Shown here: positions 19,378 through 34,493 of the stretch, piece by piece
How the letters are laid out: every line of letters begins with the position of its first letter
Position numbering within the stretch: position 1 is the stretch's first letter
NCBI GenBank assembly: GCA_964415965.1
Contig: CAYQCK010000003.1
Span: 131,426-166,074, forward strand
Source: an uncultured Gammaproteobacteria bacterium
GTDB taxonomy: Bacteria; Patescibacteriota; Patescibacteriia; 2-12-FULL-60-25
Direction of reading: 5' to 3'
Length of the DNA stretch: 34,649 bases
Position numbers and translations under genes: made by a program
The notes under the pieces: model-generated
Databases searched by the model: none
Told to the model about the DNA's origin: nothing
Seen by the model: only the letters and a program-made list of their open reading frames with translations

Positions 19378-19395
19378 GGGCAGAGGTTTCGCCAG

Positions 19396-20154
19396 CTACC
19401 GGTGCATCCGGAAGTATGCAGAAGCAGTGTTCTGGCGGTGGGGTTCGCCGTTGTTGCGCGGAACCCCGAACATCCGAGTCATGGTCCCGACTTCGATGCC
19501 CGGGATGCCAGGGGCGCCGGGGTTGGTGACGAGGGCGAAGTCGACCTGAACTTTGCCTACGCCACCGTTGTGGGGAAGGAAGACGTACCGGACGATCATG
19601 CCCGGCGGAACCAACGCTACGCGGTCGACGCGGCCGTTGCGGCGCGTGACGTCCACGTACACCAGCTTCTCCCCTTCGCAATCCAGCGGCTTGATGTGCC
19701 CGCTCGCCCTGACCTCGACCATGAAGGTCTTGTTCAGGCTGTTGTCCACCACGAGGGTGAGCGCGGGATCAGCTCCGCAGAAGGGGCCGGCGTACTCGGG
19801 GGAGATGATGACGTTCGCCGGAGGCACTGCCATCGGCGGCTGGCCCTGAGGCACGGCTGCCGTCGGCATGAGCGGGGGCTGGCCGGTCACCGGAGGAGCG
19901 GCCTGGGTCGGCACCGCTGCGGTCTGGGCCGGCACGCTAGTCGGCTTGGCCCGCGCTTCCCGACGGTCGCTCTCCATCTTCTCCAGGCAGGCCAGGTAGA
20001 CCTCCTGAGAGGGGCTCTTCTGCCGGTCGCAGGTATCGCTGGATGAGTCGTACGCGCCTCTCCAGTCGGCGCCGGTCTTGATGGTCGCTCCGCACGCGCT
20101 GGTGAGGATCGAGACGATGATGACGAACGCTACGTACACGAGAGAACTCTTCAT
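19396..20154 (-). CDS. secreted lipoprotein (252 aa), paralog family with shared Y-x-x-CLEK motif
   Basis: Lipobox ILTSAC, Pro/Ala/Gln-rich linker, beta-rich C-terminal domain. GGAGG RBS upstream of the ATG at 20154. Confidence 0.6.
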   Translation of the reverse strand: MKSSLVYVAFVIIVSILTSACGATIKTGADWRGAYDSSSDTCDRQKSPSQEVYLACLEKMESDRREARAKPTSVPAQTAAVPTQAAPPVTGQPPLMPTAAVPQGQPPMAVPPANVIISPEYAGPFCGADPALTLVVDNSLNKTFMVEVRASGHIKPLDCEGEKLVYVDVTRRNGRVDRVALVPPGMIVRYVFLPHNGGVGKVQVDFALVTNPGAPGIPGIEVGTMTRMFGVPRNNGEPHRQNTASAYFRMHR

Positions 20155-20300
20155 TGGATTCCTCCACATTGGCGACTTGGTCGCCGTCTAGTCGATGGTT
20201 TTGGCTCGGCCCCACCCTTGCGGACGGGGCCGTCACCGGTCAACGGTTCAGCTCCACATGGCGAACTCCGAAAGAATTTCGAGTAGGGCCACCATAGCCG

Positions 20301-20879
20301 CTACTTCCTCCCCGAGTTGCCGCTGGTGCAGCAAATCGGATCCTTGGGGTTCGCCCGGCAGATCGCGTCGTGCTGGGCCTTGGTCGCCCTGGCGAGGTCC
20401 GCGACGTCCTGGTCGCTCGCTCCGCCCGACGCTCCCGGCGTGACGTAGATGCGCGCGCCGCCCGAGCTGCGCTCCATGGCGACCGCGCCGTACGGCGTCG
20501 AGTCGGGGATGATGGCCGGAGCGCAGGCCGGGGAACCCGGCAAGCACGTCCTGACCATTCCCGGCGACCCGTATCCGTATCCGCCGTATCCGTATCCGCC
20601 GTAACCAGGCATCGCTCCCGGCATGCCCCCGCCGGACGTCTGTCCGCGGCAGTACATGTCGGCCTGCGAGCTGCCCATGGTCGGCGAGTTGCGCTTGATG
20701 CACTCGTCGAACTGGGCGCGGCTGTTGATGACCGTGTCGGTCGAGGTGTTGTACGGCCCGCGGGTCGTCGTCGTCCGGCTGTAGCCGTTCGGCGTGTTGA
20801 CCTCGGTGGTCGCGCTCACCGTCCTGCAGCCCATCGTGGCGAGAACCAATGCAACCAGCACCAATACGAGCTTGCTCAT
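20301..20879 (-). CDS. Cys-rich lipoprotein with Gly/Tyr repeats (192 aa)
   Basis: Lipobox LVLATMGC, a GYGGYGYGGYGYG tract, 10 Cys, GGAG RBS, driven by the TTGACAAGA-N-TATATT promoter. Confidence 0.6.
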   Translation of the reverse strand: MSKLVLVLVALVLATMGCRTVSATTEVNTPNGYSRTTTTRGPYNTSTDTVINSRAQFDECIKRNSPTMGSSQADMYCRGQTSGGGMPGAMPGYGGYGYGGYGYGSPGMVRTCLPGSPACAPAIIPDSTPYGAVAMERSSGGARIYVTPGASGGASDQDVADLARATKAQHDAICRANPKDPICCTSGNSGRK

Positions 20880-20973
20880 GTGATGATCTCCTTCGGGCTA
20901 TGCCCGATTTTCGGTTGTCGAAGCCGTCCCAGCTGAAGTTTCGCACTTGGCTACACCTTCAGTAGAACAAACA

Positions 20974-21002
20974 AATATAACACAAAAAGCCATTCTTGTC
21001 AA
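20974..21002 (-). promoter_or_regulatory. sigma70-like promoter (TTGACA-17-TATATT) for the 20879 gene
   Basis: - strand reads CTTGACAAGAATGGCTTTTTGTGTTATATTTGTTTGTTC. This is near-identical to the promoters at 24867-24895, 22008-22036 and 34465-34493. Confidence 0.6.
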
Positions 21003-21083
21003 GCCCCACCAGACAAAAAATATAGCTCAACAGAGCCCAATAATAGTGGCTTAACTAAGCCAATAAACCGAGAATATACGGCT

Positions 21084-21298
21084 TGGATTCCAGCTAGAGT
21101 CCACCCTGGCCACCGAGCCGGGGCTGGGATGACAGGACAAGGAAGCGAAAGAACCTCGTTTCGCAAGTGACCACGGGGGTCTGGGGGTCCGCGCCAAGCG
21201 TGGTGGCAGGATAACTAACGTCGGCGACACCGAGAGCGGCATCGCGGACCCCCAGGACTTTTGCTACTTTTGGTCACAAAAGTAGATAGAAAGGCTTT
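21084..21298 (+). repeat. copy C of the conserved structured element
   Basis: TTGGATTCCAGC-[hairpin]-GCTGGGATGACA...CGTTTCGCAAGTGACC...GATAGAAAGGCTTT. Confidence 0.85.
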
Positions 21299-21305
21299 CA
21301 ATTTT

Positions 21306-21520
21306 ATGACCAACCATGGATTCCAGCTTTCGCTGGAATGACACGTGGGTTAGTTGGGTCGGTTAGGTTAAAGAGTCCCACTTCGCAAGTGACAAGGGGG
21401 ACCGGGGGTCCGCGCCAAGCGTGGTACGCAAAAACGCAAACGCCCGCGACACCGAGAGCGGCATCGCGGACCCCCGGAACTTTTGCTACTTTTGGTTACA
21501 AAAGTAGAGAGAAGGGCTTT
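21306..21520 (+). repeat. copy D of the conserved structured element, in tandem with C
   Basis: ATGACCAACCATGGATTCCAGC-tttc-GCTGGAATGACA...CACTTCGCAAGTGAC...GAGAGAAGGGCTTTT. Confidence 0.85.
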
Positions 21521-21537
21521 TGCCGACAATATAGATA

Positions 21538-21570
21538 AAGCCGCGGAAACAAGTGTCTCCGCGGCTTTGC
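21538..21570. terminator. bidirectional intrinsic terminator
   Basis: AAAGCCGCGGAAACAAGTGTCTCCGCGGCTTT with a T-run on both strands. It ends the - gene 21590..21940 and any + transcript covering C-D. Confidence 0.7.
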
Positions 21571-21589
21571 GTGGCGGGAAGCGCTGGGC

Positions 21590-21940
21590 TTAGTAGCCGT
21601 ACGGCCGGCCGGGTGAGGACCAGCGGTTGTAGCCCGGGGTGCCGTAGTTGCCGTAGCTCGGGTAGTAGCCTCCGGCCTGGTACACCGGCAGCTGTCCGGG
21701 ACGACCCGCGCGGATCCAGTAGCCGCACTCTTCGGCGGCGCCCGGATAGCCCGCGTTCTTCTCCAGACACAGCTGGTAGGCCGACTTCTCGGCCGTGTCT
21801 GAAGTGACCTCGGTCGAGAACAAACCAACATCAGATCTGCGTGCATGCGCCATTTCCGGCGTCGTATCACGCACCGTGGTCGTGTGGCCGCAGCCAGCGA
21901 GGGCGAACGCCAACATCATGGTAATGAGCAAAGGCTTCAT
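21590..21940 (-). CDS. small secreted lipoprotein (116 aa) with the AYQLCLEK motif
   Basis: Start trimmed to MKPLLITMMLAFALAGC (lipobox) with GGAGAG RBS. Tyr/Gly/Pro-rich C-terminus. Confidence 0.6.
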   Translation of the reverse strand: MKPLLITMMLAFALAGCGHTTTVRDTTPEMAHARRSDVGLFSTEVTSDTAEKSAYQLCLEKNAGYPGAAEECGYWIRAGRPGQLPVYQAGGYYPSYGNYGTPGYNRWSSPGRPYGY

Positions 21941-22007
21941 CTCAACTCTCCCAGACAGCCAGAGTGGCCGTCTTTTCTTGATGGTTTGAAGATTCGGGGA
22001 ACGTATA

Positions 22008-22036
22008 TGTATACCATTTTTCCGTGTTTTTGTCAA
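22008..22036 (-). promoter_or_regulatory. sigma70-like promoter (TTGACA-17-TATACA)
   Basis: - strand reads GGGTTGACAAAAACACGGAAAAATGGTATACAT. Confidence 0.55.
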
Positions 22037-22057
22037 CCCTCCAGGGTATTTTCCGGC

Positions 22058-22096
22058 AAAGAAAAACCCCCTCGCCTGCGAGTGCAGGGAGGGGGT
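22058..22096 (-). terminator. intrinsic terminator after the VirB6-like gene
   Basis: - strand reads CCCCCTCCCTGCACTCGCAGGCGAGGGGG followed by TTTTTCTTT. Confidence 0.7.
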
Positions 22097-22134
22097 TGAG
22101 AGCCGCGTTGCGCGGCCCAAGGAGCGGCCTGACG

Positions 22135-23823
22135 TCACTTGCAGACGTCAGGATGCCTGGCGCAGTACGCGTCCAGGCCGGGGTTGCCCGAGCAGTTGCC
22201 GTTAGGGCAGTTCCGGACCACGACCGGAGGGGTCGTCGAGGTGGGCGGGGGCGCCACGCTCTTGTCCGGGACCTTGACCAGCACTTCCTGGCTCAGCTCG
22301 GTCTCGCCCGAAGCGTAGACCGCAGCCACGCGGTAAGCGTAGGTCGTGCCCGCGACCACCGTCGCGTCGTCGTAGTGGGTGACGCCGTTGGCCAGCGCGT
22401 TGAACGCCGTCCAATTCGTCTCGCCCACTGCCCGGCGCTCGTAACGGTAGCCCTTGGCTGCCTTCGGGATCTCGGGGTAGGTCAGCCTGACCTTGCCGTC
22501 GACGATGTTCGCCTGGGGCGCGAACATCTTCGAGAGCGAAGTGCCTTCCTTCAGGTTGAAGGTGTCGGCCTTGCCCCACGAGAAGATCGTGATGCACAGG
22601 CTGCCGATGGCCAGGAACATCATGAGGATGAACGACGCGGCCAGCAGCTGGCGGGCGCGCCGCGGGGCTCCCGTGGCGTCCTCGTCCGGCCAGCACATCC
22701 AGCCGACGAACCCGGTGAACAGGGCGCCGCAGAGCGCCGCGTACCACGGGAACCCGACGAACTTCTTGTCGCCGATGCCGAGGACCCACTTGATGGCGCC
22801 GATGGCCACGTCCACGATGCCGCCCAGGAGCGCGCCGATCTGGATGACCAGAGCGTCGAACTTGACCTGCAGCGGAGGGAAGAAGACCACGAGCGCGAGG
22901 AGCACGAGGAGCGCGTACCCGGCGTACACCAGGGAGCGCGCCGCCCGCTGCCGCCAGCTGAGCGTGTCGATGCCGTTGTTCTCCGCGTTCTCGAAGGAGA
23001 GGTAGGAGAAGATCCCGGCCAGCGTCGTCAGTACGAGCACCGACGGGAAGGGCATGAGCACGCCGATGGCGAGGACCGGCAAGAGCGCCGAATTGATCCG
23101 CGCTTTGGCCCGCTTGATGGCCGGTTTGAACATCTCCTGGTCGGCCAGGTTGATGTCCACGTTCGCCAGGCCCCTGAGGCCGGCCGTGATGAGCGTCTTC
23201 GCGATGCTCACGATGGCGTTGCTCGAGCCTTCGGCGAAGTCCACGCCCAGCTTGGCCATGTGCGCCACCAGGTCCACGACCATGAACAGCACTTCGCGGG
23301 CCATCAGGATGTACACCACCCCGAGGACGGCCAGCATGCGCGCGTCCATGAGCGGAGCCAGGTTGACCGGATCGGCGACCACGTTCCCGACCGCCAGATG
23401 CGCGGCCAGGAAGAACCAGACGCCGAGCGAGAGCAGGCCGAGGAATGAAGCCGAAATCACGGTCATGACCGAGAAGTCGTCCAGCGGACGGAGTCCGTTC
23501 ACGACAATCCAGGCCGAGAAACCGCTGGCGATCAGCAGCCCGACGATCCACGCCGACTGCGGCACGGTCGTACCGAGCGCGAGGAGCATGGCGCCGAAGA
23601 CGCCGACGAACAGCACGCCGACCACGACCCAGCCGATCCGGCGGAACGCCGGAGCGATGAGCGTGTCGTACGCCAGTCCCGCCAGGTCGACGAGCGCCTG
23701 GCCGGTCGCGGCGAACATGTTGCCGATGGCCGTCAGGAGCGCGCCGCCGCCCAGGAACTGGACGACCGCCACGAAGCCGACGAGCACGACGATCGAAAGC
23801 AATACCACTACCATGAGCTGCAT
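22135..23823 (-). CDS. VirB6/TrbL-like polytopic membrane protein with C-terminal FN3-like domain and Cys-rich tail
   Basis: About 10 TM helices across 430 aa, then a soluble C-terminus (TYPEIPKAAKGYRYERRAVGETNWTAF...YAYRVAAVYASGETELS) and CPNGNCSGNPGLDAYCARHPDVCK. Start trimmed to the ATG at 23823. Confidence 0.45.
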   Translation of the reverse strand: MQLMVVVLLSIVVLVGFVAVVQFLGGGALLTAIGNMFAATGQALVDLAGLAYDTLIAPAFRRIGWVVVGVLFVGVFGAMLLALGTTVPQSAWIVGLLIASGFSAWIVVNGLRPLDDFSVMTVISASFLGLLSLGVWFFLAAHLAVGNVVADPVNLAPLMDARMLAVLGVVYILMAREVLFMVVDLVAHMAKLGVDFAEGSSNAIVSIAKTLITAGLRGLANVDINLADQEMFKPAIKRAKARINSALLPVLAIGVLMPFPSVLVLTTLAGIFSYLSFENAENNGIDTLSWRQRAARSLVYAGYALLVLLALVVFFPPLQVKFDALVIQIGALLGGIVDVAIGAIKWVLGIGDKKFVGFPWYAALCGALFTGFVGWMCWPDEDATGAPRRARQLLAASFILMMFLAIGSLCITIFSWGKADTFNLKEGTSLSKMFAPQANIVDGKVRLTYPEIPKAAKGYRYERRAVGETNWTAFNALANGVTHYDDATVVAGTTYAYRVAAVYASGETELSQEVLVKVPDKSVAPPPTSTTPPVVVRNCPNGNCSGNPGLDAYCARHPDVCK

Positions 23824-23881
23824 TTTCAATCTCCTTCTGTCCGGGCCCGATTCCGGGCCCGGACCGGTTGTCAGACGCTCG

Positions 23882-24769
23882 CTACCATTCCCGCCGAGCT
23901 TTCGCCCGACGGGCTGCGATCTTGGAGCGGACACCGTCGACCGCTCCCGTGAGGCTGTCCACTCCAGTGGCCATCTCCTTCAGGGCCGCATCAGGCTTGT
24001 CGACGAGCTCCTCAGCCTTCTTGCCGAAGGCGCCGAAGAACTTCTTCTTGGCCTTCTCGAGCGTGCCCATGATGCCTCCGGCTTCCGGCGGCTTGATGTC
24101 GCCGTAGGCCAGCTTGAGGTGGGCGATCCAGGTGTCCTTGTCGAGGTCGATGAGGGTGAGCATGAGGTTGAAAAGTTCCCACCTGTTGCCCACGATCTTT
24201 GCCCGATACGTCTCGAACGCCTTCTTGTCCTCTTCGGACAGGCTGGCGTGCTTGGCTTGGAACGCCCTCTGCCGCGCGACCTCGAGCGAGAGCAGCGCCG
24301 AGCTGAACGTCGCGCTCTCGAGCAGGAGACTCCGGGCCTTTTCCTTGGCCTCGGCCGTCGCCTTGCTCAGGTCCTGCTCCGTGATCTTGCCCTTGGTCCG
24401 CTGGGCATGTCCCAGCCCGTGGATGAAGCTATCGATCGCCTCGTCCAACAGGCTGATGTACTCCTCGGGGACGCCGAGCGACTTGAGGCCGGTGCGGACA
24501 AGCTTGGGGTTCTGGATGAGCGCCGCGGCTCCGGCTGTCACCAGGCCTGCGGCATGGGTGCCGATGAGGCTCTCGACCGCGTCGAGGCCGCGCGACATCC
24601 ACGGCTGGTTGGCCACTCGGCCGCCCAACCCGCCCGCCACGACCTGCACCAGGTTCGAGAAGAACCTGACGTAGAACCGCGGATCGGACGCCATATCCTT
24701 GGCTTCTTCCTTGCCCTTCTTGCCGCGCCTGCCGCCACCAGAGTCATCCCTGCCCGTATCTTCTGGCAT
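23882..24769 (-). CDS. hypothetical protein (295 aa), first gene of the VirB6-like operon
   Basis: GGAGAAGGA RBS upstream of the trimmed start. Helical, Lys/Ala/Glu-rich C-terminal half. Confidence 0.5.
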   Translation of the reverse strand: MPEDTGRDDSGGGRRGKKGKEEAKDMASDPRFYVRFFSNLVQVVAGGLGGRVANQPWMSRGLDAVESLIGTHAAGLVTAGAAALIQNPKLVRTGLKSLGVPEEYISLLDEAIDSFIHGLGHAQRTKGKITEQDLSKATAEAKEKARSLLLESATFSSALLSLEVARQRAFQAKHASLSEEDKKAFETYRAKIVGNRWELFNLMLTLIDLDKDTWIAHLKLAYGDIKPPEAGGIMGTLEKAKKKFFGAFGKKAEELVDKPDAALKEMATGVDSLTGAVDGVRSKIAARRAKARREW

Positions 24770-24866
24770 GTTCGTTTCCTTCTCCCCCGTTTGGGGGTTC
24801 TTCTGTTGCCGAAGTTGCCGCTCCTTGGGCGCGTCCCCGAATGGGACACTCCTCAAAGAACAAACA

Positions 24867-24895
24867 AATATAGCACAAAACCCCCTTTTTGTCAA
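24867..24895 (-). promoter_or_regulatory. sigma70-like promoter (TTGACA-17-TATATT)
   Basis: - strand reads CTCTTGACAAAAAGGGGGTTTTGTGCTATATTTGTTTGTTC. The first ~25 nt of the transcript are near-identical to the 20974 promoter transcript. Confidence 0.6.
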
Positions 24896-25021
24896 GAGTG
24901 CCATTAACAAAAATGTCGCTCAACTGAGCCATTTTTTACCCAAATTATTTGGCTTTGTTGAGCGATTTATTCTAAGCGCCGTTAAGAAAATGGTGGATAT
25001 GTGCTTTTTAGCCATGACCAG

Positions 25022-25213
25022 CCATGGATTCCAGCTTGCACTGTAATGACAGCGGGGGGGCGGAAGAGTCACACTTCGCAAGTGACCTCGGGGGTCTGGG
25101 GGTCCGCGCCAAGCGTAGCGGCAAGATGACTGACGTCGGCGACACCGAGAGCGGCATCGCGGACCCCCAGGACTTTTGCTACTTTTGGTCACAAAAGTAG
25201 ATAGGAGGGCTTT
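25022..25213 (+). repeat. copy E of the conserved structured element (degenerate 5' module)
   Basis: CCATGGATTCCAGCTTGCACTGTAATGACA...CACTTCGCAAGTGACC...GATAGGAGGGCTTT. Confidence 0.85.
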
Positions 25214-25220
25214 CTGTTTT

Positions 25221-25458
25221 ATGGCCAACCATGGATTCCAGCTGGAGTTTACCCCGGCCACCAAGCCGGGGCTGGAATGACGGATGGATCAGGTGGGTTA
25301 GGTGGGTCAAAGAGCCCCGTTTCGCAAGTGACACGGGGGACCGGGGGTCCATGCTAAGCGTGGCGCACAGGATAACCCGCATTCGCGACACCGAGAGCGC
25401 ATCATGGACCCCCGGAACTTTTGCTACTTTTGGTCACAAAAGTAGATAGGATGGCTTT
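25221..25458 (+). repeat. copy F of the conserved structured element, in tandem with E
   Basis: ATGGCCAACCATGGATTCCAGC-[hairpin]-GCTGGAATGAC...CGTTTCGCAAGTGAC...GATAGGATGGCTTT. Confidence 0.85.
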
Positions 25459-25469
25459 ATGCCTTTTAC

Positions 25470-27071
25470 CTACAGCCTAACTTCAAAAGTCACGCCATCT
25501 TCAGTCTCCTTAAGTTTCAGAAACCGAGGATCCGATTCGATGAGCTTCAGGAATTGCCTATGGATTTCACGCTTGCTAATGAAAACGAATCTCGAGTCGA
25601 GCCGATCATGGATCAATTCCCAAGCTTGCTCCTTGGTCGTGCTCGTCATGCCCCAGGTGAGGTTCCTGACATCGTCCGACAAAGTCGAGGACGCGACGTA
25701 GAGGAAAGTCGGGTCCATGCCTGAGACATAACGCAATCGGTCATCGGCCGCGAACAGCATCGGGAACTCGTCCCAGCTCGAATGGAACACGCGGTCTCCC
25801 GGTTGCGCCAACTTCGCGACGGCTTCAAAGCTGCCGCGATAAGCTGTGTCCGGATAGTTCGCCGGGTGCAGGCTCCGCCAGATGCCTTGGACCTCGCGCC
25901 CGGCCAAACCAAGCGCCAAAACGCCCACAAGAATCAGCAAGGCCGATAGCCCGCGCTTCCCCAACACCCTGAGGCTATCCTTGGCCTCGGCCGCCAAACG
26001 GCGCGCGTCGACCATGCTCCAGATTGCGCCGCACCAGATGGCCACGGCCGGCGCCAGATATTCGGTCGTGCGTCGGCTCTTGAGGGTCAAGGCGAAAAAA
26101 GCCGCCACTAATAAGCCAGAAGACAGGCATAAAGCCGCCTTCTCGCGGTCCGCCGGACGGCGCGGCGCCAGCGCCAGCCCGGCCAGGCCCAGCAGCAAAT
26201 CGATGATCCAGGGCGCATACGCCGTGACCAAATGCGTGGCTTCAGGCGGCAGCCACTCGGTGCCCATGACAACCTTGCCCATGGGCGTGCCCAGGCCGAT
26301 GATGAAAACCTGCGTCCAGCTGAACAAGAAATTCTCCGGGAAATTCGGATGGACAAGCATCCCGAACAGTCCCCCGGCCAGGACCGCCGCGACCTCCTTC
26401 CACAGCCCGTGCTTCAAGGCCTGGACGAACCGCATCCCGCCCAAATCCCTGTCGGCGACCAAACGACCGAAGGCCAGGACCGTCGCCGCACCGGCCAGAT
26501 AGGGCCAACCGCCGTGCGACAACGCATAGGTCGCCGCGATGGCGAACGCCGCCCACGGCCGCCGTCGCCACACGGCCAGGATGCCGAGCAGGAACAACGC
26601 GATAGCCAAGGGCGAAGCCTTGCCCAACAGGATCCGCGTCACGAACGGCTGGGTCACGGCCAACACGGTCACCCAAATCCCCGGCCTCCAGACCCCGAAC
26701 GCGCGCAAAACGGCATACGCCGCCGCCAGGCAGGCCGCAGCCAAAGCCACGCTCGCGATGCGCAATCCCTGGAATGGGCCGAAAACCGCCGTGGCCGGCG
26801 CGACCAGGACATGGAACAGGAAATGCAGGTCCGCGTAATGCTGTCCGACGGACGTCAGATCAAGCCAGGGAAATGTATTCAACGGCCCATGCGCCCAAAG
26901 CAACGCCGACGTTTTGGCGTGGTAAAAAGCATCCGGGTCATTGAACCCGTCCCAAGGCATCAGGACCGAGAAATACGCCAGGCCGAACAAAAAAACCCCG
27001 ACAGCCCTCTTCAAACCATCGACTCTCGACTCACGAATACATGCCTTGATCACCCCCGAACTATAACACAA
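25470..27071 (-). CDS. polytopic membrane protein, probable GT-C-type glycosyltransferase (ArnT/PMT-like) with C-terminal soluble domain
   Basis: About 12 TM helices over 400 aa plus a ~130 aa C-terminal domain, last gene of the galU-pilin operon. Family call is tentative. Confidence 0.4.
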   Translation of the reverse strand: MCYSSGVIKACIRESRVDGLKRAVGVFLFGLAYFSVLMPWDGFNDPDAFYHAKTSALLWAHGPLNTFPWLDLTSVGQHYADLHFLFHVLVAPATAVFGPFQGLRIASVALAAACLAAAYAVLRAFGVWRPGIWVTVLAVTQPFVTRILLGKASPLAIALFLLGILAVWRRRPWAAFAIAATYALSHGGWPYLAGAATVLAFGRLVADRDLGGMRFVQALKHGLWKEVAAVLAGGLFGMLVHPNFPENFLFSWTQVFIIGLGTPMGKVVMGTEWLPPEATHLVTAYAPWIIDLLLGLAGLALAPRRPADREKAALCLSSGLLVAAFFALTLKSRRTTEYLAPAVAIWCGAIWSMVDARRLAAEAKDSLRVLGKRGLSALLILVGVLALGLAGREVQGIWRSLHPANYPDTAYRGSFEAVAKLAQPGDRVFHSSWDEFPMLFAADDRLRYVSGMDPTFLYVASSTLSDDVRNLTWGMTSTTKEQAWELIHDRLDSRFVFISKREIHRQFLKLIESDPRFLKLKETEDGVTFEVRL

Positions 27072-27119: not shown

Positions 27120-27503
27120 CTATCCCTGTCCGGTCGCGTTGATGAGCGAACCCATCACGAAACTCGAGATGGCGTAAGCCGCGACGATGATTATCAAGCC
27201 GATGATGGCCTGGGTAAGCATGTCTTTGGCCTTCTTGACCTTGCTGTCGTCGCCCTGCGCCGTCATCCAGAGGAAACCGGCGTAAAGCGTCAGGACGAGG
27301 AAGACGATGCCCAGGAAGCCGAGGAAAATATTGATCAGGTTACCGATCATCTCGGTCAGCCCTCCTTCAGTTTTAATCCCGGCCGTCTCACCGACTTTTC
27401 CGACCATCTCCTGCCCTTTCTGGAACGGATTCTCAGCCAGGACCTGCAGCGGCGCCATCAGCGCCAAGCCGGCTCCGGCGATGTATGTCTTTAGGTTCTT
27501 CAT
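27120..27503 (-). CDS. VirB2/TrbC-like (T4SS-pilin-like) small membrane protein, paralog F
   Basis: Signal peptide, short ectodomain, TM1 ending LYAGFLWMTAQGDDSKVKKAKDM, then TM2 LTQAIIGLIIIVAAYAISSFV. Confidence 0.6.
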   Translation of the reverse strand: MKNLKTYIAGAGLALMAPLQVLAENPFQKGQEMVGKVGETAGIKTEGGLTEMIGNLINIFLGFLGIVFLVLTLYAGFLWMTAQGDDSKVKKAKDMLTQAIIGLIIIVAAYAISSFVMGSLINATGQG

Positions 27504-27538
27504 AACGATATTAGCTTCGTGGCTCACGTTTATGCTTA

Positions 27539-27961
27539 TTAGCCTCCTTCTCCGCCTCCGCCGCCGACATCGCCCGTGCCTCCGCTTGTCGCGTTGCCGA
27601 GCGAGCCGATGACGAAATCCGCGATCGCATAGGCCGCGACGATGATGACCAAGCCGATGACGGCCTGGGTTATCATGTCCTTGGCTTTCTTGACCTTGGA
27701 CTCGTCTCCCTGCGCCGTCATCCAGAGGAAACCGGCATAGATCAGGATGGCCAACAGGACCAACCCGAGCAGCCCCAGGGCTTGGCCGATCAAGGAACCG
27801 ACGATCCGCGTCAGATCCGTGGGCCCTTGGTCGTACCCGGACGGTCTGGCCGCAGCGCTCAAGCCTGTCCGCATCGAATCCGCCGGGGCGGCTACGGCTG
27901 GCAAAGCCAAAACCGCGGCCAAACCTACGGCCAAACTCGTGCAAGCGATGAATTTCCTCAT
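27539..27961 (-). CDS. VirB2/TrbC-like small membrane protein, paralog E (Gly-rich tail)
   Basis: IYAGFLWMTAQGDESKVKKAKDMITQAVIGLVIIVAAYAIADFV; start at MRKFIAC (an alternative ATG lies at 27970). Confidence 0.6.
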   Translation of the reverse strand: MRKFIACTSLAVGLAAVLALPAVAAPADSMRTGLSAAARPSGYDQGPTDLTRIVGSLIGQALGLLGLVLLAILIYAGFLWMTAQGDESKVKKAKDMITQAVIGLVIIVAAYAIADFVIGSLGNATSGGTGDVGGGGGEGG

Positions 27962-27996
27962 GTGATGCATAACGATGGTTACAAGCGGACCGCGGG

Positions 27997-28395
27997 CTAG
28001 GCGTCCTGCGTCGCGGTGATCAAACGTGAAATGACGAAGCTGGTGATCGCCCATGCCGACAAGATGATGGCCAAACCGATAATGCCTGAAACGATAAGTT
28101 TCTTGGCTTCTCCGGTCTTTTCATCGTTCCCTCCGGCGATCATCCATTTGAAACCGCCGAGCAGCACGATGACCACGGCGACGATGCCGAGGAAACCGAG
28201 CGCGACGTTGATGATGCGGGCTGCGGTCTGGCGGACATCGCCTGAACCGAGCTTGATCGTCGACTGGATGGCCCCTACGCCCAGATCGTTCTGGTTGAGG
28301 TCATCGGCGGCGAACACCACGGCCGGGGCGGCCAAAACGGCGGCCAGACCGAGGGTCGTGGCGAAGGCTGCAGCTTTCTTAAGACGTTGCGTCAT
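27997..28395 (-). CDS. VirB2/TrbC-like small membrane protein, paralog D
   Basis: Signal peptide, then LLGGFKWMIAGGNDEKTGEAKKLIVSGIIGLAIILSAWAITSFV. Confidence 0.55.
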   Translation of the reverse strand: MTQRLKKAAAFATTLGLAAVLAAPAVVFAADDLNQNDLGVGAIQSTIKLGSGDVRQTAARIINVALGFLGIVAVVIVLLGGFKWMIAGGNDEKTGEAKKLIVSGIIGLAIILSAWAITSFVISRLITATQDA

Positions 28396-28492
28396 GTCAT
28401 GTGTCACCTCCTTTCGGTTTGGGATACACGCTTTACGTGTCGGTGGGAAGTTTAGCAGATGCGCCGTCCGGAGTCGAATCCCCAAGCGGCCT

Positions 28493-28954
28493 TCAGGGCA
28501 CGGCTTGGCCGGTCGTTTCCGGGTTTCCGGCCTGGCTCGTCGGGGCGTTGTTCGGGGGCGTCGCGCCGGACAGCGTGCTCCCGAGTCTCGTGATGATGTT
28601 GAACACCAAGACGTAAGCCAACGACACGATCGCCAGGCCGATGACCGCGTTCTTGAGCGTCGTGGTCGCCTTCTTCACCCGGTCGCTTTCGCCTGACGCC
28701 GTCATGTACATGACTCCGCCCCAGATGAACATGGCCAAAAACAGCGAGCCGACCAAGGGCAGTACCCAACTGATGATGCGGGCCACGAGTTCGGGCACGC
28801 TCTTGCCGCCCATCGGGTCCTGCAGGCCGTAACTCTGGAAACCGGCCGGCGCCGGGCTCGGTTGCGACGCCGCCGAGACGGGCAGGGTGATGGCCAGGAC
28901 GACCAGGCAAGCGACAACGGCCGAAACGGTCAAAAGGGTTTGTTTGTTTTTCAT
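28493..28954 (-). CDS. VirB2/TrbC-like small membrane protein, paralog C
   Basis: FIWGGVMYMTASGESDRVKKATTTLKNAVIGLAIVSLAYVLVF, with a Pro/Thr-rich C-terminal tail. Confidence 0.55.
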   Translation of the reverse strand: MKNKQTLLTVSAVVACLVVLAITLPVSAASQPSPAPAGFQSYGLQDPMGGKSVPELVARIISWVLPLVGSLFLAMFIWGGVMYMTASGESDRVKKATTTLKNAVIGLAIVSLAYVLVFNIITRLGSTLSGATPPNNAPTSQAGNPETTGQAVP

Positions 28955-28961
28955 AGCGGTG

Positions 28962-29657
28962 TCACGAGCCTTGCGGCACGGCGTAGCCCGTCGTCTCCGG
29001 CGGTGGCTTCGGGACATCTGAAGTCAAAGCCTTGAAGAAGAAGTCCACCAGGACATAGGCGAACATGATGAGCGCCAAACCGATGATGGCGTACTTCATC
29101 GTGTCCGTCGCCTGCTTCACCCGGTCGCTCGAACCGGCCGTCATGTACATGATGCCGGCGTAGATGAACACGATCAGGGCCAAGGCCCCGACCATGCCGA
29201 TGAACGCGGCCACGAACCGGCCGATAAGGGCGTTCAACGTCACGCAATCGGCCTTGCCCGTCGGACACAGCGGATTCGCCAACGTCATCGGCGAACCGGC
29301 CGATACGCCCGCCGAGGCCTGCGTGGCCGAAGCGGCGCGCGCCAGACAGGTCGGATCATTCGGGTTCTTCTTGCACAGGTCTTCGATAAGGGGCTCGAGG
29401 GCGGGACCAACCGCTTTCTGCGCCTGTTTGTTCTTGCAGCATGCCGCATTTACGGTCTTGACGCACGTTCCGAGCTTATCCTGGTTCATCTCGCAATCGT
29501 CGCTCACCAGGTTGCAGCTCCCGCCCTGCTTCGTGCAATCCTGGGGAGTCATGGCCGCGGCCGACTCCGCTTGGACAAAAAACAGGCTAAACGCGACCAT
29601 AAGACCGGTAATGGCCGGCAGGATTTTCTTGTATGTTTGCTTGGCCATATGGTTCAT
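28962..29657 (-). CDS. VirB2/TrbC-like membrane protein, paralog B, with ~150 aa Cys-rich ectodomain
   Basis: 12 Cys in the ectodomain, then IYAGIMYMTAGSSDRVKQATDTMKYAIIGLALIMFAYVLVDFF. ATGA overlap with paralog A. Confidence 0.55.
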   Translation of the reverse strand: MNHMAKQTYKKILPAITGLMVAFSLFFVQAESAAAMTPQDCTKQGGSCNLVSDDCEMNQDKLGTCVKTVNAACCKNKQAQKAVGPALEPLIEDLCKKNPNDPTCLARAASATQASAGVSAGSPMTLANPLCPTGKADCVTLNALIGRFVAAFIGMVGALALIVFIYAGIMYMTAGSSDRVKQATDTMKYAIIGLALIMFAYVLVDFFFKALTSDVPKPPPETTGYAVPQGS

Positions 29658-30043
29658 TGGCTAATCACTATCCCGGCCACGTAGCGGACGATGGTCCAGG
29701 CGCTCATCACGATGAGCATGCCGATGGCCCCGCCTTTCATGGCCTGCGTCCCCTTCTGCACCCAGTCGGCCTTGCCGAACGACAGCAGATACCGGGCTCC
29801 GCCGTAGACGAAGGTAGCGAAGAACAGGGCGGCCGAAATCTCCATCAGCATGTTGCCGAACGCCGCCGCCGTCCTGACGATGTCATCCAGGCTGCAGTCC
29901 CCGGAGGCCATGCATTTTTTCTGCACACCTGTCTTATCCATTTCGGCCGTCAGCGACTGCGCCCAAGCCGCGGTCGGCAAGAGCCACGCGCCGAGCGTGG
30001 CGGCCAATGCGGCCAAAGGACGTTTTAGGTTCGGCATAAACAT
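29654..30043 (-). CDS. VirB2/TrbC-like small membrane protein, paralog A
   Basis: Signal peptide, then FVYGGARYLLSFGKADWVQKGTQAMKGGAIGMLIVMSAWTIV. Its ATG overlaps the stop of the upstream SBP gene (TGATG). Confidence 0.5.
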   Translation of the reverse strand: MFMPNLKRPLAALAATLGAWLLPTAAWAQSLTAEMDKTGVQKKCMASGDCSLDDIVRTAAAFGNMLMEISAALFFATFVYGGARYLLSFGKADWVQKGTQAMKGGAIGMLIVMSAWTIVRYVAGIVISQ

Positions 30044-31494
30044 CAGAAATTGTAGGGTATGGTCTGCGAAATCTTGCTGGCCGCGTTGCTGAAGACCTGC
30101 GAGAGTTTCTCCGGATCCGTGACCCGGACGTCATCGATCAGGGTGACGAGCGCGTCCTCCATGGTCTTCGGGTCGTTCCCTTTATACCAGGAGCGCGCCG
30201 TCAGGACCTGCGACGAGAACACCCCGATCTGCTCGTTCTCGAGCTGGCCGGGCAATTGGGACTTCAGGGCCGCCGGCCGCAGCGCCACATCCAGGTATTT
30301 CTTGTTCTCATCCGGCTTGCGCATGAAATTCAGCAGGTTCCATGACAGGTCCACGGATTTGGTCTTCTTGGACACGGTCCAGGCCCAATAGTTGGCGTAG
30401 TTCACGACCGGATTGCCCGTTATCTGCGGCATCTTGGCCATGGCCAGGTTCAGCTTGGGCGCGCGGGCGCGGATGACCGGCAGATGGTAGCTGTAGCCGA
30501 AAAAGAACGCGACCTTGCCCTGGATGAAGGCGTCGAGCGAATTCGGCTGCTGGTCGTTCCAGGTATAGACGTCTTTCCCGGGATTGGCGAAGTCGGTGTA
30601 GAAAGTCAGGGCTTGGTACGCCGGAGGCGTGTCGCGTTGGCCGGACAGGGCGGCCGGTATCTGGTTGAAGGTCGGCGAACCGTCGGCGGCGGCCATCTCG
30701 GCGCCGTTCTGCATCATGAGCGCCGCCACGATGTCCGGCGAGCGTTCGACGTTCTTGCCCGTGCCCAACGCGGCCCCAGCCTGCAGGATGGCTCCGGTAT
30801 CGTCGGTTTTGACCAGCTTCTTGACCGCGGTCTGGAAATCGTCCCAGTTCTCCGGGATGTTCGCGATGCCCGCCGCGTTCAGCAAGTCCTTGTTGACGTA
30901 CATGGCCAGCGTATCCACCGACATCGGCACAGCCACCACGCGCTGCTGCCAATCCTTCTTTTCCTTGTCGGTCGACACATTGACGGTCCGGATGAAGTCG
31001 TTCGCCACCACATCCGGGTAATCGCTCTTGAATTGGCGGATGGAGACCGTCGGTTCGGTCTGGAGCGTCCAGACCAGCTCTTTCTTGAGCGTGCCCTGGA
31101 CGGACTGCGACGCCGTTTTGGTCTGGAGCGGCATGGGCAGGAGCTTGCTCATGTATTTGCCGACCCAGGTGTTGTGGATCATGAAGATGTCCGGTCCGCG
31201 GTCCTCGGCCAGCGCGTTCAGGAGCTCGTTCTCGTATTCCTCCAGGCGGAAACGCCGGTAGTTCAACGTCGCGTTGGGGTGGAGCTTGCGGTAATCGCTC
31301 AATATCGCCTGATACGCGTCGTTGTCGTCGATCACGCCCCAGATGTTGATCTCCGCCTTCTTGGAAGCGGCCTGGGTCGCGGCATCCGGCCCCTTGGTGC
31401 AGCCGGCGGCCAAAGTCGCGGTCGCCACCAAAGCCCACATGAGCTTCAGGGCTAATGAACGGGTTTTCTTGGAGTTTTGCATACCTGACGCCAT
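30043..31494 (-). CDS. lipoprotein extracellular solute-binding protein (family-1 SBP, sugar type)
   Basis: Lipobox LAAGC and MalE-like SBP features (NIWGVIDD..., ...FFGYSYH...). Co-transcribed between galU and the pilin-like genes. Confidence 0.65.
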   Translation of the reverse strand: MASGMQNSKKTRSLALKLMWALVATATLAAGCTKGPDAATQAASKKAEINIWGVIDDNDAYQAILSDYRKLHPNATLNYRRFRLEEYENELLNALAEDRGPDIFMIHNTWVGKYMSKLLPMPLQTKTASQSVQGTLKKELVWTLQTEPTVSIRQFKSDYPDVVANDFIRTVNVSTDKEKKDWQQRVVAVPMSVDTLAMYVNKDLLNAAGIANIPENWDDFQTAVKKLVKTDDTGAILQAGAALGTGKNVERSPDIVAALMMQNGAEMAAADGSPTFNQIPAALSGQRDTPPAYQALTFYTDFANPGKDVYTWNDQQPNSLDAFIQGKVAFFFGYSYHLPVIRARAPKLNLAMAKMPQITGNPVVNYANYWAWTVSKKTKSVDLSWNLLNFMRKPDENKKYLDVALRPAALKSQLPGQLENEQIGVFSSQVLTARSWYKGNDPKTMEDALVTLIDDVRVTDPEKLSQVFSNAASKISQTIPYNF

Positions 31495-31495
31495 T

Positions 31496-32368
31496 TTACA
31501 CTTTCGACAGCTTTTTAACGAGTGCCCGCGCTTCTTGGCGCATATCCGGTCTGTTCAGGGCGATTTCCAGGTTGGCCTTCAACCAGCCGATCTTGGAGCC
31601 GGTGTCGTAATACGTCCCTTCGACAAGCTTGGCGTACACCGGACGCTTCTTCATGAGCCCAAAGATGGCGTCCAGCAGGACCAGCTCCCCGCCATGCCCC
31701 TTCTTGGTCTTTTCGATGGCCTCGAAGATGTCCGGCGTCAGGACATAGGCCCCGAGCGAGGCCAAGCGCGACGGCGCCTTGTCCGGTCCCGGTTTCTCGA
31801 CCACTCCTTTGAGCTGGTACACGCCTTTTTCGACCTCGGCCGCCGGGTCGATGATGCCGTAACGCTTCGTGTCCTCATCCCCCACCTTGGTGGTGAACAG
31901 CACCGGATCCCGGTATTTCTCGAACACCTCGATCATCTGCTTGAGCCGTGGCTTCTTGCTGACCATGAAATCGTCGCCGAACAGCACGGCGAACGGTTCG
32001 TCGCCGATGACTTCCCTGGCGTTCAGCACCGGGGTGGCGTTGCCGTACGGCCCTTTCTGGCGGATATAGATGAAATTCGCCATGTGCCCGATGGCCCGGA
32101 TCTCCTCGAGCTGCTCCTTTTTGCCCGTGGCCTTAAGCCAGGCCTCAAGCGTCTGGTTGTCGTCGAAATGGTCCTCGACCGCCCGTTTGCTGATATTCGT
32201 GACCAAGATGATGTCCGTGATGCCCGAGGCGACCGCCTCCTCGACCACGTATTGGATGACCGGCTTGTCGATGACCGGCAGCATCTCTTTGGGCATGGCT
32301 TTGGTCGCCGGCAAGAACCGCGTCCCGAATCCCGCCACCGGGATGACCGCTTTGCGTACTTTTTGCAT
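31496..32368 (-). CDS. galU: UTP--glucose-1-phosphate uridylyltransferase
   Basis: KAVIPVAGFGTRFLPATKAMPKEMLPVIDKPVIQYVVEEA is the canonical GalU N-terminus; 290 aa. Confidence 0.9.
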   Translation of the reverse strand: MQKVRKAVIPVAGFGTRFLPATKAMPKEMLPVIDKPVIQYVVEEAVASGITDIILVTNISKRAVEDHFDDNQTLEAWLKATGKKEQLEEIRAIGHMANFIYIRQKGPYGNATPVLNAREVIGDEPFAVLFGDDFMVSKKPRLKQMIEVFEKYRDPVLFTTKVGDEDTKRYGIIDPAAEVEKGVYQLKGVVEKPGPDKAPSRLASLGAYVLTPDIFEAIEKTKKGHGGELVLLDAIFGLMKKRPVYAKLVEGTYYDTGSKIGWLKANLEIALNRPDMRQEARALVKKLSKV

Positions 32369-32428
32369 ATACCTGGATTATACCCGTCCCGAAGGCAGAT
32401 AAAAAAGACCGCCGATTTTTGCCGGCGG

Positions 32429-32643
32429 ATGGATTCCGGGGGATTTTGCCCGGCCCCAAACCGGGGCTGGAATGACGGGTTGGGTTATCGGACAAAAAAG
32501 CCCCACTTCGCAAGTGACAAGGGGGGGGTCCGGGGGGCCGCGTGGCGTGGCGCACAGAATCTCTAACGTCAGCGACACCGAGAGCGCATAGCGGACCCCC
32601 GGAGCTTTTGCTACTTTTGGCTACAAAAGTAGATAGAAGGTTT
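32429..32643 (+). repeat. copy G of the conserved structured element (most divergent copy)
   Basis: ATGGATTCCGGGGG...CCGGGGCTGGAATGAC...CACTTCGCAAGTGAC...GACACCGAGAGCGCATAGCGGACCCCC...CTACTTTTGGCTACAAAAGTAGATAGAAGGTTT. Confidence 0.8.
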
Positions 32644-32663
32644 AAAATATTTAGGACGCGGCC

Positions 32664-32690
32664 GTGGATTCCAGCTTCCGCTGGAATGAC
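32664..32690 (+). repeat. isolated 5' module (H) of the element family
   Basis: GTGGATTCCAGC-ttcc-GCTGGAATGAC with no core following. Confidence 0.6.
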
Positions 32691-32744
32691 GGTCGTCCTG
32701 GGTTTCTCCACGCGCTTCGCTCGGTCGAAATGACGGCGCGGTGT

Positions 32745-33839
32745 TTACGCCCCAACCCTGAAAAAGCACGTATCCCCGTCTTTCATCACGTAATCTTTCC
32801 CCTCGATGCGCGTCAGCCCTTTCTCGCGGCACCCGACCTCTCCCCCATTGTCCAAAAGATCCTTCCAATTCGTGATTTCCGCGCGGATGAACGTCTTTTC
32901 GAAATCCGTGTGGATGACGCCCGCCGCCTGCGGCGCTTTGGCGCCTTTTTTGACGGTCCAGGCGCGAGTCTCCATCTCGCCCGTGGTGATGAAGGTGATG
33001 AGCCCGAGCACGTCGTAGGCCTCCTTGATAAGCCGGTCCAAACCGGATTCGGCCAAACCCATGGACTCGAGGTATTCCTTCTTCTCGTCCGGCGACATCG
33101 AGGCGAGCTCAGCCTCCATCTTCACGCACACCGGCACGATGCGGCAGGTGGCGGAAACGGCCAGCTTACCCAACCGCTCCTTCCACGAACCGTCCTGGAT
33201 CTGTGCCTCGCTGACGTTGACCGTGTAAAGCATAGGCTTGAGCGTTAGCAATTGGAGCTGCTTCAGCTCTTTGAGTTCATCCTCTGTCCATTGCAGATCC
33301 CTAAGCTGGACGCCCTTTTCGAGTTCGGATTTTGACCGTTCGAGCGCCGCTTGGAGCGTTTCGAGTTCTTTGGTCCGCCCGGCCTTGAGCTGTCGCGAGA
33401 CGCTCTCGAGCCGTTTATTCACGGTTTCGAGGTCGGCCAACGCCAGCTCGATGCCGATGGTCTCGGCGTCGCGTTCCGGGTTGATGGTGCCGTCCACGTG
33501 GATGACGTTCTCGTCCTCGAAGGCCCGCAGCACCTGGGCGATGGCGTCGCACTCGCGGATGTTGGCCAGGAACTTGTTGCCCAGGCCCTGCCCTTCGGAT
33601 GCGCCTTTGACCAGGCCGGCGATATCCACGAACTCGATGGTCGTAGGCACGATACGGCCCGACTTCGACATCTCGGCCAGGGGCGCCAGCCGCTCGTCCG
33701 GGACCTCCACGACACCCACGTTCGGGTCGATGGTGCAGAACGGGAAATTGGCGCAATCCACCGCCTTCTTGGTGATGGCCGAAAACAGGGTGGATTTACC
33801 CACGTTAGGGAGCCCGACGATGCCGATTTGGAGAGGCAT
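32745..33839 (-). CDS. ychF: redox-regulated ribosome-binding ATPase YchF (Obg-family GTPase)
   Basis: [16 protein letters not shown]1 motif, TGS-like C-terminus. Start trimmed to MPLQ. Confidence 0.9.
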
Positions 33840-33937
33840 AAAGTAAAGAGAGACTACCTGCAAACCCGAAGAGCGTCAACGGCCGCAAACAAGAAAACCG
33901 GCCGCGACAGGATATCGCAAGCCGGCTTTTCCGAGGT

Positions 33938-34435
33938 TCAACGCGGCAGCGTGGCCGCGCCGTTGAAGTAGTAAGGACCGGGCGTCGACTGCGGTCCGAC
34001 ACCGTTCGACCTAAGGTCGTATGGAATCGACATGCCGCCGATCGTCATGTCCAGGGTGCCGACCTGGTGGCCGTTGCCGCCGCACGGTCGGACAGGCGAC
34101 AGGTCAAACGTCCAGCAATAGCCTCCGCCGGCATCCGCTCTGGCATACCTGACCGCGAAGACCGCCTGGCTACCGGCCGGAATCCCGAACTCACAGGCGT
34201 AGCCGCCGTCCACCGTCTTCATGGCGCACAATGTCTGCCATGGGTGGACGTTCCCGTTCGGATCCGAGAAGTAACCCTCGAGATTGACCGGGCCGGTCGG
34301 GATGTGGCTCGGATCAGGCGTCCAGAGCACCGACAGGACGGATTGCCTGGGAGGCTGCGGCGCTAGCCGCTTTCCGCAGCATCCGCCAAGGGCCAACGCG
34401 AGGCTGCAGGCTACCGCAAACACCATCTTGTTCAT
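33938..34435 (-). CDS. secreted lipoprotein (165 aa)
   Basis: Lipobox LALGGC, AGGAGGAG RBS, TTGACAAAAAGG-N-TATAAA promoter just upstream. Confidence 0.55.
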   Translation of the reverse strand: MNKMVFAVACSLALALGGCCGKRLAPQPPRQSVLSVLWTPDPSHIPTGPVNLEGYFSDPNGNVHPWQTLCAMKTVDGGYACEFGIPAGSQAVFAVRYARADAGGGYCWTFDLSPVRPCGGNGHQVGTLDMTIGGMSIPYDLRSNGVGPQSTPGPYYFNGAATLPR

Positions 34436-34464
34436 TCAGCTCCTCCTGTTGAAGGGACCGTCAT

Positions 34465-34493
34465 TTATATCAAATTTTTGCCTTTTTGTCAAG
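34465..34493 (-). promoter_or_regulatory. sigma70-like promoter (TTGACA-17-TATAAA)
   Basis: - strand reads TCCTTGACAAAAAGGCAAAAATTTGATATAAATG. Confidence 0.55.

Follow-up and report, generated by a model that had tools for sequence, protein, structure and literature searches.

We analysed a 34,649-nt stretch of DNA (hereafter the window; contig CAYQCK010000003.1 of GenBank assembly GCA_964415965.1, positions 131,426 to 166,074 of the forward strand) that carries four look-alike promoters on its minus strand, here called pA, pB, pC and p34466. They precede genes for small lipoproteins or an operon that encodes a membrane protein. The reading we favour, with a probability of about 0.65, is that all four are generic sigma-A promoters of short transcription units and that a palindrome upstream of pA and pB is the operator of a regulator. 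This palindrome, also found upstream of many promoters of the pA/pB class across Patescibacteria, is the part of the finding that goes beyond the ordinary and makes a testable candidate operator. As stated in a preliminary description of the sequence, which proposed a regulon of paralogous surface lipoproteins in an accessory locus, the finding is for the most part unremarkable: envelope genes with high expression that have consensus promoters.

Very little is known of how Patescibacteria regulate their genes. The analysis yields a usable strong-promoter consensus for the phylum, which could help the design of genetic tools and expression cassettes; a conserved three-promoter layout of an orphan envelope module beside a VirB2-like pilin array; and a candidate operator motif, with which a regulon could be delimited and its regulator sought. 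A limited literature search, which does not prove novelty, found no description of a Patescibacteria promoter consensus, regulon, sigma factor or transcription start site study.

Promoter sites

The whole window was scanned for TTGACAAAAA-N13-TATA with at most one mismatch, using 100 dinucleotide-preserving shuffles as a control. There were exactly four matches, all on the minus strand, and none in any of the 100 shuffles (0 expected). pA (24867–24895) reads TTGACA-17-TATATT with TGTG in the -16 region, followed by TGTTTGTTCT. pB (20974–21002) reads TTGACAAGAA..TTTTTGTGT TATATT and is followed by the same TGTTTGTTCT. pC (22008–22036) reads TTGACAAAAA..GGAAAAATGG TATACA, and p34466 (34464–34492), which has a short leader, reads TTGACAAAAAGGCAAAAATTTGA TATAAA. 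The -35 hexamer is TTGACA (6/6) and the spacer exactly 17 nt at all four sites. The -10 hexamer matches TATAAT at five of six positions in pA, pB (both TATATT) and p34466 (TATAAA) and at four of six in pC (TATACA), and each site has an extended -10 TGn; pA and pB have 11 of 12 hexamer matches plus the TG.

All four sites are intergenic, and the open reading frame (ORF) downstream of each has a Shine-Dalgarno (SD) sequence. The start codon lies 97 nt from pA for g23882 (23882–24769, minus strand), a 295-aa cytoplasmic-looking orphan and the first gene of the pA unit; 94 nt from pB for g20301 (20301–20879, minus strand), a 192-aa lipoprotein-like protein; 67 nt from pC for g21590 (21590–21940, minus strand), a 116-aa lipoprotein; and 28 nt from p34466 for g33938 (33938–34435, minus strand), a 165-aa lipoprotein. 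The sites fall into two classes, pA and pB (class 1) and pC and p34466 (class 2), with extra cis elements seen only in pA and pB.

The preliminary description had listed four look-alike minus-strand promoters with TTGACA and an A-run, a 17-nt spacer and TATATT, TATACA or TATAAA, and the scan confirms them. Three of its coordinate pairs are exact, and the fourth (34465–34493) is off by one base. The extended -10 was absent from it. It was right that the promoters precede small lipobox proteins or a membrane-protein operon, and it left two weaker sites of the same type unlisted: pD (12313–12341, minus strand; TTGACAATGA...TGGTATCCT), which precedes a gene for an 814-aa SpoIID-like protein (9817–12261), and a site at 5575–5603 on the plus strand. 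Aligned with one another, the four promoter regions are alike, and pA and pB can be aligned over about 130 nt including the leader.

We regard the four sites as genuine housekeeping-type (sigma-70/sigma-A) promoters that are almost certainly functional, because they are kept at orthologous positions in relatives whose proteins are only 25–79% identical. A consensus match is not proof of function, and this general caveat is what could be said for chance promoter-like sequence; but the empty shuffles, the intergenic location of 4/4 sites at the right distance from genes with an SD sequence and, effectively settling the matter, the conserved orthologous positions refute that explanation.

A strong-promoter consensus in the phylum

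Related loci, about 930 kb, came from a genome scan with one genome per species and a metagenome scan (71 loci, GC content 37–64%); individual loci carry L numbers below. In the genome scan, the pA/pB pattern matched 13 metagenome-assembled genomes (MAGs), most of them titled Ca. Uhrbacteria, Parcubacteria or Patescibacteria group, with two Third Party Annotation (TPA) bins labelled Gammaproteobacteria. For a consensus we used 51 non-redundant TTGACA-N17-TAnnnT sites selected by neither search pattern. A occupies the three positions after TTGACA in 67, 65 and 51% of these sites, respectively (background A 24%), spacer positions 14–18 are 74–94% A+T, TG precedes the -10 hexamer in 27 (53%), and G/T/T/C are over-represented from 6 nt after it. 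The strong-promoter consensus of the phylum is roughly TTGACAAAA-N5-(A/T)5-N-TGn-TATAwT.

A promoter of this type precedes the SpoIID-like gene in all close relatives. Elsewhere, such promoters precede a TruD pseudouridine synthase gene and genes for many orphan proteins without a signal peptide. We therefore read the A-run, the exact spacer and TATAxx as the general strong-promoter consensus of the phylum. They point to no dedicated or common regulator, because they also stand before unrelated genes (TruD, SpoIID-like, non-secreted orphans). Taken alone, they would imply strong and for the most part constitutive transcription by the primary sigma factor.

In the preliminary description these same features were the signature of coordination: all four promoters would form one regulon, driving paralogous surface lipoproteins in an accessory, host-interaction locus. 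The likeness of the four sites is indeed striking, and three of the four first genes encode lipobox signal peptides. But what the sites share is generic in the phylum, as the 51 unselected sites show, and pC and p34466 lack the extra elements of pA and pB. Together with the protein and locus evidence given below, this makes a single four-promoter regulon improbable.

Bacillus subtilis sigma-A promoters may have a -16 region, or extended -10, of the form TRTGnTATAAT. The promoters described here resemble such Gram-positive sigma-A promoters in the -35 TTGACA, the 17-bp spacer, the TGn (TGTG in pA and pB) and the A/T-rich spacer and flanks. They differ in an A-run, typical of the lineage, directly after the -35 hexamer (TTGACAAAA), in a phased A- or T-tract within the spacer and in GTTC about 6 nt after the -10 hexamer.

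Upstream of pD (12342–12400), a separate inverted repeat, CCAyGA-TTTTGT-TCATGG, lies within ACGAACCA..GTTCATGGGAATTTTG and is conserved in all four close relatives. It may be a regulatory site of its own.

A palindrome upstream of pA and pB

The palindrome is 14 bp long, has the form GGCTyA-NN-TrAGCC and occurs twice at pA and twice at pB. These four copies are its only intergenic matches in the window; none was found upstream of pC, p34466 or pD. Both proximal copies (GGCTCAGTTGAGCG at 24917–24930 for pA; GGCTCTGTTGAGCT at 21024–21037 for pB) are centred 28.5 bp upstream of the start of the -35 hexamer, at about -63.5. The distal copy at pB (21048–21061; GGCTTAGTTAAGCC) is a perfect palindrome, 24 bp from the proximal one and centred 52.5 bp upstream of the -35 (about -87.5). 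At pA the distal site (24951–24964; CGCTCAACAAAGCC) is palindrome-like, 34 bp from the proximal one and centred 62.5 bp upstream (about -97.5). Overall, pA and pB have in common a cassette of about 200 nt made up of the two palindromes, a T-tract spacer with TGTG, TATATT, the TGTTTGTTCT start region and a related structured leader.

In orthologous alignments the proximal palindrome of pA is nearly invariant, and the proximal 28-bp site is kept in deep orthologs of pA (L018, L019, L071) and of pB (L015, L022, L074). The palindrome also recurs before class-1 promoters of many different genes in other Patescibacteria, over GC contents of 37–64%, and it was part of neither search pattern used to collect the loci. 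With a stringent definition (7 or more of the 8 core bases matched and 5 or more of the 6 middle positions A/T, within 100 nt upstream), it is present upstream of 19 of the 69 non-redundant class-1 promoters, compared to 0.22 expected from shuffles (maximum 3 in 500). A relaxed definition gives 32 of 69 against 2.8 expected. Control regions are nearly empty (0/64 at -400 to -300 and 1/66 at +40 to +140). Distances from the -35 hexamer cluster sharply at 28 bp (about 15 sites within 26–29), then at 52, 42–43 and 62 bp. Taking the palindromes as the starting point, 34 of the 50 found anywhere in the loci have a strong promoter within 12–110 nt downstream, compared to 74 of 2000 random positions; several of the promoters behind palindromes had been picked by neither search pattern.

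We infer that the palindrome is a candidate operator of a dimeric DNA-binding protein, because it is 2-fold symmetric with half-sites one helical turn apart, keeps a fixed distance to the promoter and is often in tandem at 23–24 bp. The proposed protein would co-regulate a larger set of genes along with the pA and pB units, as an activator or a repressor; pC and p34466 would lie outside this control. Symmetric tandem sites of this kind are typical of dimeric helix-turn-helix proteins, for example at the lambda operators. Class I CRP/FNR sites lie near -61.5, and cooperative lambda CI operators are about 24 bp apart. The palindrome is like such operators in its 14-bp 2-fold symmetry, its half-sites one turn apart, its fixed position at about -63.5 and the frequent second site 24 bp upstream. 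It differs from them in that GGCTTAnnTAAGCC matches no operator that we can name and in that the core promoter is already consensus.

Alternatively, the palindromes could be a structural part of an extended promoter, either UP-element-like, bend-inducing (for RNA polymerase or a nucleoid protein) or acting as weak insulating hairpins. Their surroundings at about -45 to -100, where UP elements lie, are A/T-rich, an A- or T-run usually follows the palindrome, and the core promoter needs no activator. But a GC-cored, 2-fold symmetric 14-bp site with half-sites 10 bp apart and a tandem spacing of 23–24 bp is in the style of a dimeric helix-turn-helix operator, and more than half of the class-1 promoters lack the palindrome; we consider a purely structural role unlikely. 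Stems of 4–5 bp are too weak for termination, and A-runs follow as often as T-runs, so terminators were rejected as an explanation. Several further leads, namely tRNA D-arm relics (there is a tRNA-Ala upstream of p34466), LexA (Cheo box), CIRCE and SinR sites, were dropped on direct sequence comparison.

The likeness of pA and pB could also stem from a duplicated or gene-converted promoter-leader cassette, with the palindromes as passengers that have no regulatory role. The two regions align through the leader, and in one relative, L009, the pB leader is of the pA type, a sign of conversion. However, the palindrome keeps its distance in front of genes that are not orthologous, in many genomes with GC contents from 37 to 64%. 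In addition, when the four closest loci are aligned, a block from about -75 to +45 around pA, with palindrome and promoter, is nearly invariant while the sequence further upstream diverges, which argues for selection rather than recent copying. We judge passenger palindromes to be unlikely.

Returning to generic promoters with an operator at pA and pB, several results count against this combination or limit its reach. Promoter activity and start sites are themselves deduced from sequence. Both scans used the class-1 (pA/pB) promoter pattern, so that the loci are a biased sample of these genomes. A palindrome can be recognised at only 28–46% of class-1 promoters, core promoters that are already near-consensus have no evident need of an activator, and tandem spacings of 24 or 34 bp do not put all sites on one helix face. 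A search for an autoregulated regulator among the small proteins encoded behind palindrome-bearing promoters gave no candidate, and no DNA-binding Pfam domain in any of them. The only tRNA promoter that could be read (tRNA-Ser, TTGACC-N17-TACGCT, kept in L009) has neither A-run nor TG, and the consensus therefore describes strong promoters, not all promoters. Finally, the enrichment of lipoproteins behind class-1 promoters is modest when counted at the level of families (12/52 vs 10.7%, p about 0.01).

More tentatively, we propose that the palindrome combined with a class-1 promoter (TTGACAAAA..TTTTnTGyTATATT-TGTTTGTTC) may mark a widespread Patescibacteria regulon, whose members would include Cys-rich lipoproteins and the membrane FN3 operon beside the pilins. 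If this holds, the regulon could be a switch for cell-surface or host-contact functions in episymbionts.

Transcription units and leaders

Strong comparative evidence divides the module into three predicted transcription units: pA with g23882 and g22135, pC with g21590, and pB with g20301 and g19396. p34466 would drive g33938 and perhaps also ychF. No promoter was found in the 146-nt gap between g20301 and g19396 (19396–20154, minus strand), which is therefore probably co-transcribed from pB. Each of the three units is closed by a terminator-like hairpin on the minus strand: CCCCCTC...GAGGGGG plus TTTTT, read directly from the sequence, for pA (22062–22095); a hairpin plus T-run for pC (21537–21568); and a strong hairpin of 15 pairs plus T-run for pB (19346–19378).

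The 5' leader of pA, about 90 nt (24770–24860, minus strand), consists of a GTTCT start, a hairpin, a CTTCGGCAACAGAAG hairpin and a CCCCC-N4-GGGGG hairpin that abuts the SD sequence. It is conserved only among pA and pB orthologs. Common to the pA and pB leaders are the GTTCT start, a small hairpin presenting CAAC (stems CTTC/GAAG, CTTT/AAAG or TTCG/CGAA) and a GC hairpin abutting the SD sequence. The CAAC-loop hairpin (CTTY-GRCAACA-RAAG) was also considered as a general RNA motif of class-1 transcripts and rejected: over 60 CAAC sites, in-register pairing was no better than in shifted controls. Seen only in pA and pB orthologs, it is taken as a feature of that lineage.

In the window, L010 and L011, the pA and pB leaders differ in the first hairpin. 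In L009 (12479–12620) a leader of the pA type follows pB, with an identity of about 85% as judged by eye. The pA and pB cassettes have therefore exchanged sequence at least once, which points to gene conversion, and concerted evolution adds to their likeness. An Rfam search of 18250–25500 (E ≤ 1) found nothing relevant to the leaders or to the repeats described below.

The region before galU (32369–32430) has a terminator-like hairpin plus T-run, then GGGTATAAT only 9 nt before the ATG, and no TTGACA. The start of galU looks -10-only and nearly leaderless, quite unlike pA and pB with their long leaders.

Conservation of the locus

From its genes, the titles of the matching MAGs and its pilin array, we take the window to be a chromosomal segment from a Patescibacteria (candidate phyla radiation, CPR) bacterium akin to Candidatus Uhrbacteria. 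The window encodes PolX, EamA, Nramp, RuvB, Wzx/Wzy, a SpoIID-domain protein, DUF4180, a solute-binding lipoprotein, GalU, YchF, tRNA-Leu and tRNA-Ser, and its GC content is even at 56–66%. The contigs that carry the homologs of g22135 have the order (YchF, GalU,) solute-binding protein, six pilins, a membrane protein of about 500 aa, g23882, g22135, g21590, g20301 and g19396, followed by Wzy/Wzx and the SpoIID-like gene. The order pilins, g25470, g23882, g22135, g21590, g20301, g19396 is kept in L009, L010, L011, L019, L022 and L018, and partially in L015. Over these relatives the identity of g22135 falls from 79 to 25%, with 49% in L019 (a Ca. Uhrbacteria MAG), 33% in L022 and 25% in L018.

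Every syntenic locus has promoters at the pA, pC and pB positions, each with its own conserved spacer. pA is conserved in L009, L010, L011, L018, L019, L022 and L071, and orthologs of pA and pB have a T-tract, then TGy, then TATATT. The pC spacer GGAAAA(T/G)NG before TATA(C/A)A is kept in L009, L010, L011, L015, L018 and L019. The p34466 ortholog in L009 is TTGACC-17-TATTAA.

The locus is thus a conserved core chromosomal module of envelope genes and not an accessory island, because it is syntenic in deep relatives, flanked by housekeeping genes and even in GC content. The same facts speak against the accessory or host-interaction locus of the preliminary description and against the single regulon built on it.

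Lipoproteins and an orphan family

No Pfam match was found in a scan of g19396, g20301, g21590, g22135, g23882, g25470 and g33938, or in a rescan of g19396, g22135, g23882, g25470 and g33938 at E ≤ 5. None of the lipoproteins was placed by this hidden Markov model search in any family, housekeeping or other.

Two of the lipoproteins are related. g21590 is a short paralog of g20301, with 28% BLASTP identity over 118 residues. Compared as orthologous groups with hhalign, they match at a probability of 97.8% (E 1e-12) over about 110 residues. Both have a lipobox, a TTP/NTPNG segment, a [YF]xxC[LMI]..N...A..C motif, PGxMP and a Gly/Tyr-rich tract. Searched in full with HMMER, their joint profile returned only 49 representative clusters among 1.84 billion, in long and short forms. 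g20301 and g21590 form a small, lineage-restricted orphan family.

g19396 encodes a 252-aa lipoprotein-like protein with a YLACLEK N-terminal domain, a Pro-rich linker and a C-terminal beta-sandwich. Y-x-A-C-L-E is invariant among its orthologs. The predicted structure has a small helical N-terminal domain with the motif, a disordered Pro-rich linker and the beta-sandwich, the last at a predicted local distance difference test (pLDDT) score of 80–90; the model has no significant match among solved structures in the PDB (best E-value 0.013). Profile-profile comparison with g20301 or g21590 gives a probability of 66–76%, covering the signal peptide and YxxCLE only.

The motifs AYQLCLEKN, VYLACLEKM and GYGGYGYGGYGYG named in the preliminary description are present. 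The link between g21590 and g19396 that it drew from YxxCLEK is weak, being driven largely by the signal peptide, and g20301, in its account a protein with 10 Cys, has 8, along with a GY-rich tract. Its paralogous surface-protein family holds for g20301 and g21590, and does not extend to g33938, which shows no similarity to the other lipoproteins, or with any weight to g19396.

By a regex-level test against [LVI][ASTVI][GAS]C, the lipobox of g21590 (LAGC) is canonical and that of g33938 (LGGC) near-canonical, while those of g20301 (TMGC) and g19396 (TSAC) are non-canonical at -3. The lipobox Cys is kept in orthologs (LVGC, AMGC, VTGC, VSAC).

With a similarly crude lipobox test, 22 of 74 ORFs behind class-1 promoters elsewhere are lipoprotein-like, compared to 67 of 628 control ORFs (Fisher p 3e-5); many of the 22 are g20301 orthologs. 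This tendency and the paralogy of g20301 and g21590 are in favour of one lipoprotein regulon, but g33938 is unrelated, and a modest excess fits abundant envelope proteins having strong promoters and is not decisive.

At its C-terminus g20301 has a conserved CRxNPxDPxCC motif, and disulfide-rich extracellular tails seem to be characteristic of the module (g22135, g20301).

The membrane protein g22135 and the pilin array

g22135 (22135–23823, minus strand) encodes a 562-aa polytopic membrane protein with only eight homologs among 5.8 billion proteins. Its C-terminus (22135–22520) has an FN3 domain followed by a Cys-rich tail (CPNGNCSGNPGLDAYCARHPDVCK), conserved in all homologs. The preliminary description called it VirB6-like. 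Like VirB6/TrbL, it is a polytopic membrane protein, has about 560 aa and is encoded close to pilin genes; unlike them, it matches no TrbL/VirB6 sequence family, even at E ≤ 5. In an AlphaFold model of low confidence (pLDDT 61), Foldseek matches to the PDB cover the C-terminal FN3 domain only. The VirB6-like label is unsupported, and the evidence leans against a VirB6 identity. No homolog of VirB4, VirB3, VirB6 or VirD4 was found among the window ORFs scanned against Pfam, which were not all ORFs.

Six tandem VirB2-like pilin genes (PF18895, T4SS_pilin) at 27120–30043 on the minus strand immediately precede the module. Two score 45.1 and 39.5 bits against the PF18895 cutoff of 26.6, and all six are PF18895 in the precomputed annotation of the contig. 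In Patescibacteria, 441 VirB2-like pilin arrays of 2–11 genes have been described (Quinonero-Coronel et al., 2025, PMC12102498). The window resembles these in its six tandem, divergent PF18895 genes at a chromosomal location, and differs in that the paper covers neither the module downstream of the array (g25470 to g19396) nor its promoters; the word 'promoter' is absent from its text. In a near-identical strain with identical GalU (L002, 4158–5430), the fifth and sixth pilins are 109 and 136 aa rather than 171 and 127 aa, which suggests strain-level variation in the array.

Repeats and tRNA surroundings

Seven copies of a structured intergenic repeat were found, at 16718–16901, 19095–19331, 21084–21328, 21367–21550, 25014–25243, 25222–25458 and 32427–32691. 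The conserved core of about 140 nt has CTACTTTTGTGACCAAAAGTAG, then a 13-bp stem GGGGGTCCGCG...CGCGGACCCCC with compensatory changes (GCG/CGC to ATG/CAT); GTCATTCCAGC-N-GCTGGAATCC hairpins frequently flank the repeat. Every copy closely follows a minus-strand gene and has the orientation of that gene; two copies in tandem precede pA, and two precede pB. The syntenic loci L009–L011 lack the repeat, which matches no Rfam family. It could be an element resembling miniature inverted-repeat transposable elements (MITEs) or repetitive extragenic palindromic (REP) sequences, or a 3' untranslated region (3'-UTR) element.

Between Wzy and tRNA-Ser (15200–18163) lie four genes (two orphans, an HD-domain protein and DUF4180) and one repeat copy. 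The four genes are absent from L009, L010 and L011 and are thus a small insertion beside the tRNA. In the region 18288–18440, the conserved tRNA-Ser promoter is about 120 nt upstream of the tRNA in the window, but only 17 nt in L009; the leader in the window therefore carries an insertion of about 100 nt.

On the opposite strand, directly upstream of p34466, is a tRNA-Ala(GGC) gene (L001 6686–7290, a segment of the same contig that overlaps the window at 34535–34649 and extends beyond it). A tRNA-Ala(UGC)-like gene is present beside it as one split copy and as three partial copies in tandem, and a small ORF that by eye resembles a GIY-YIG-type nuclease is inserted between the duplicated tRNA 3' halves. 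The arrangement of tRNA-Ala(GGC) and promoter is kept in L009.

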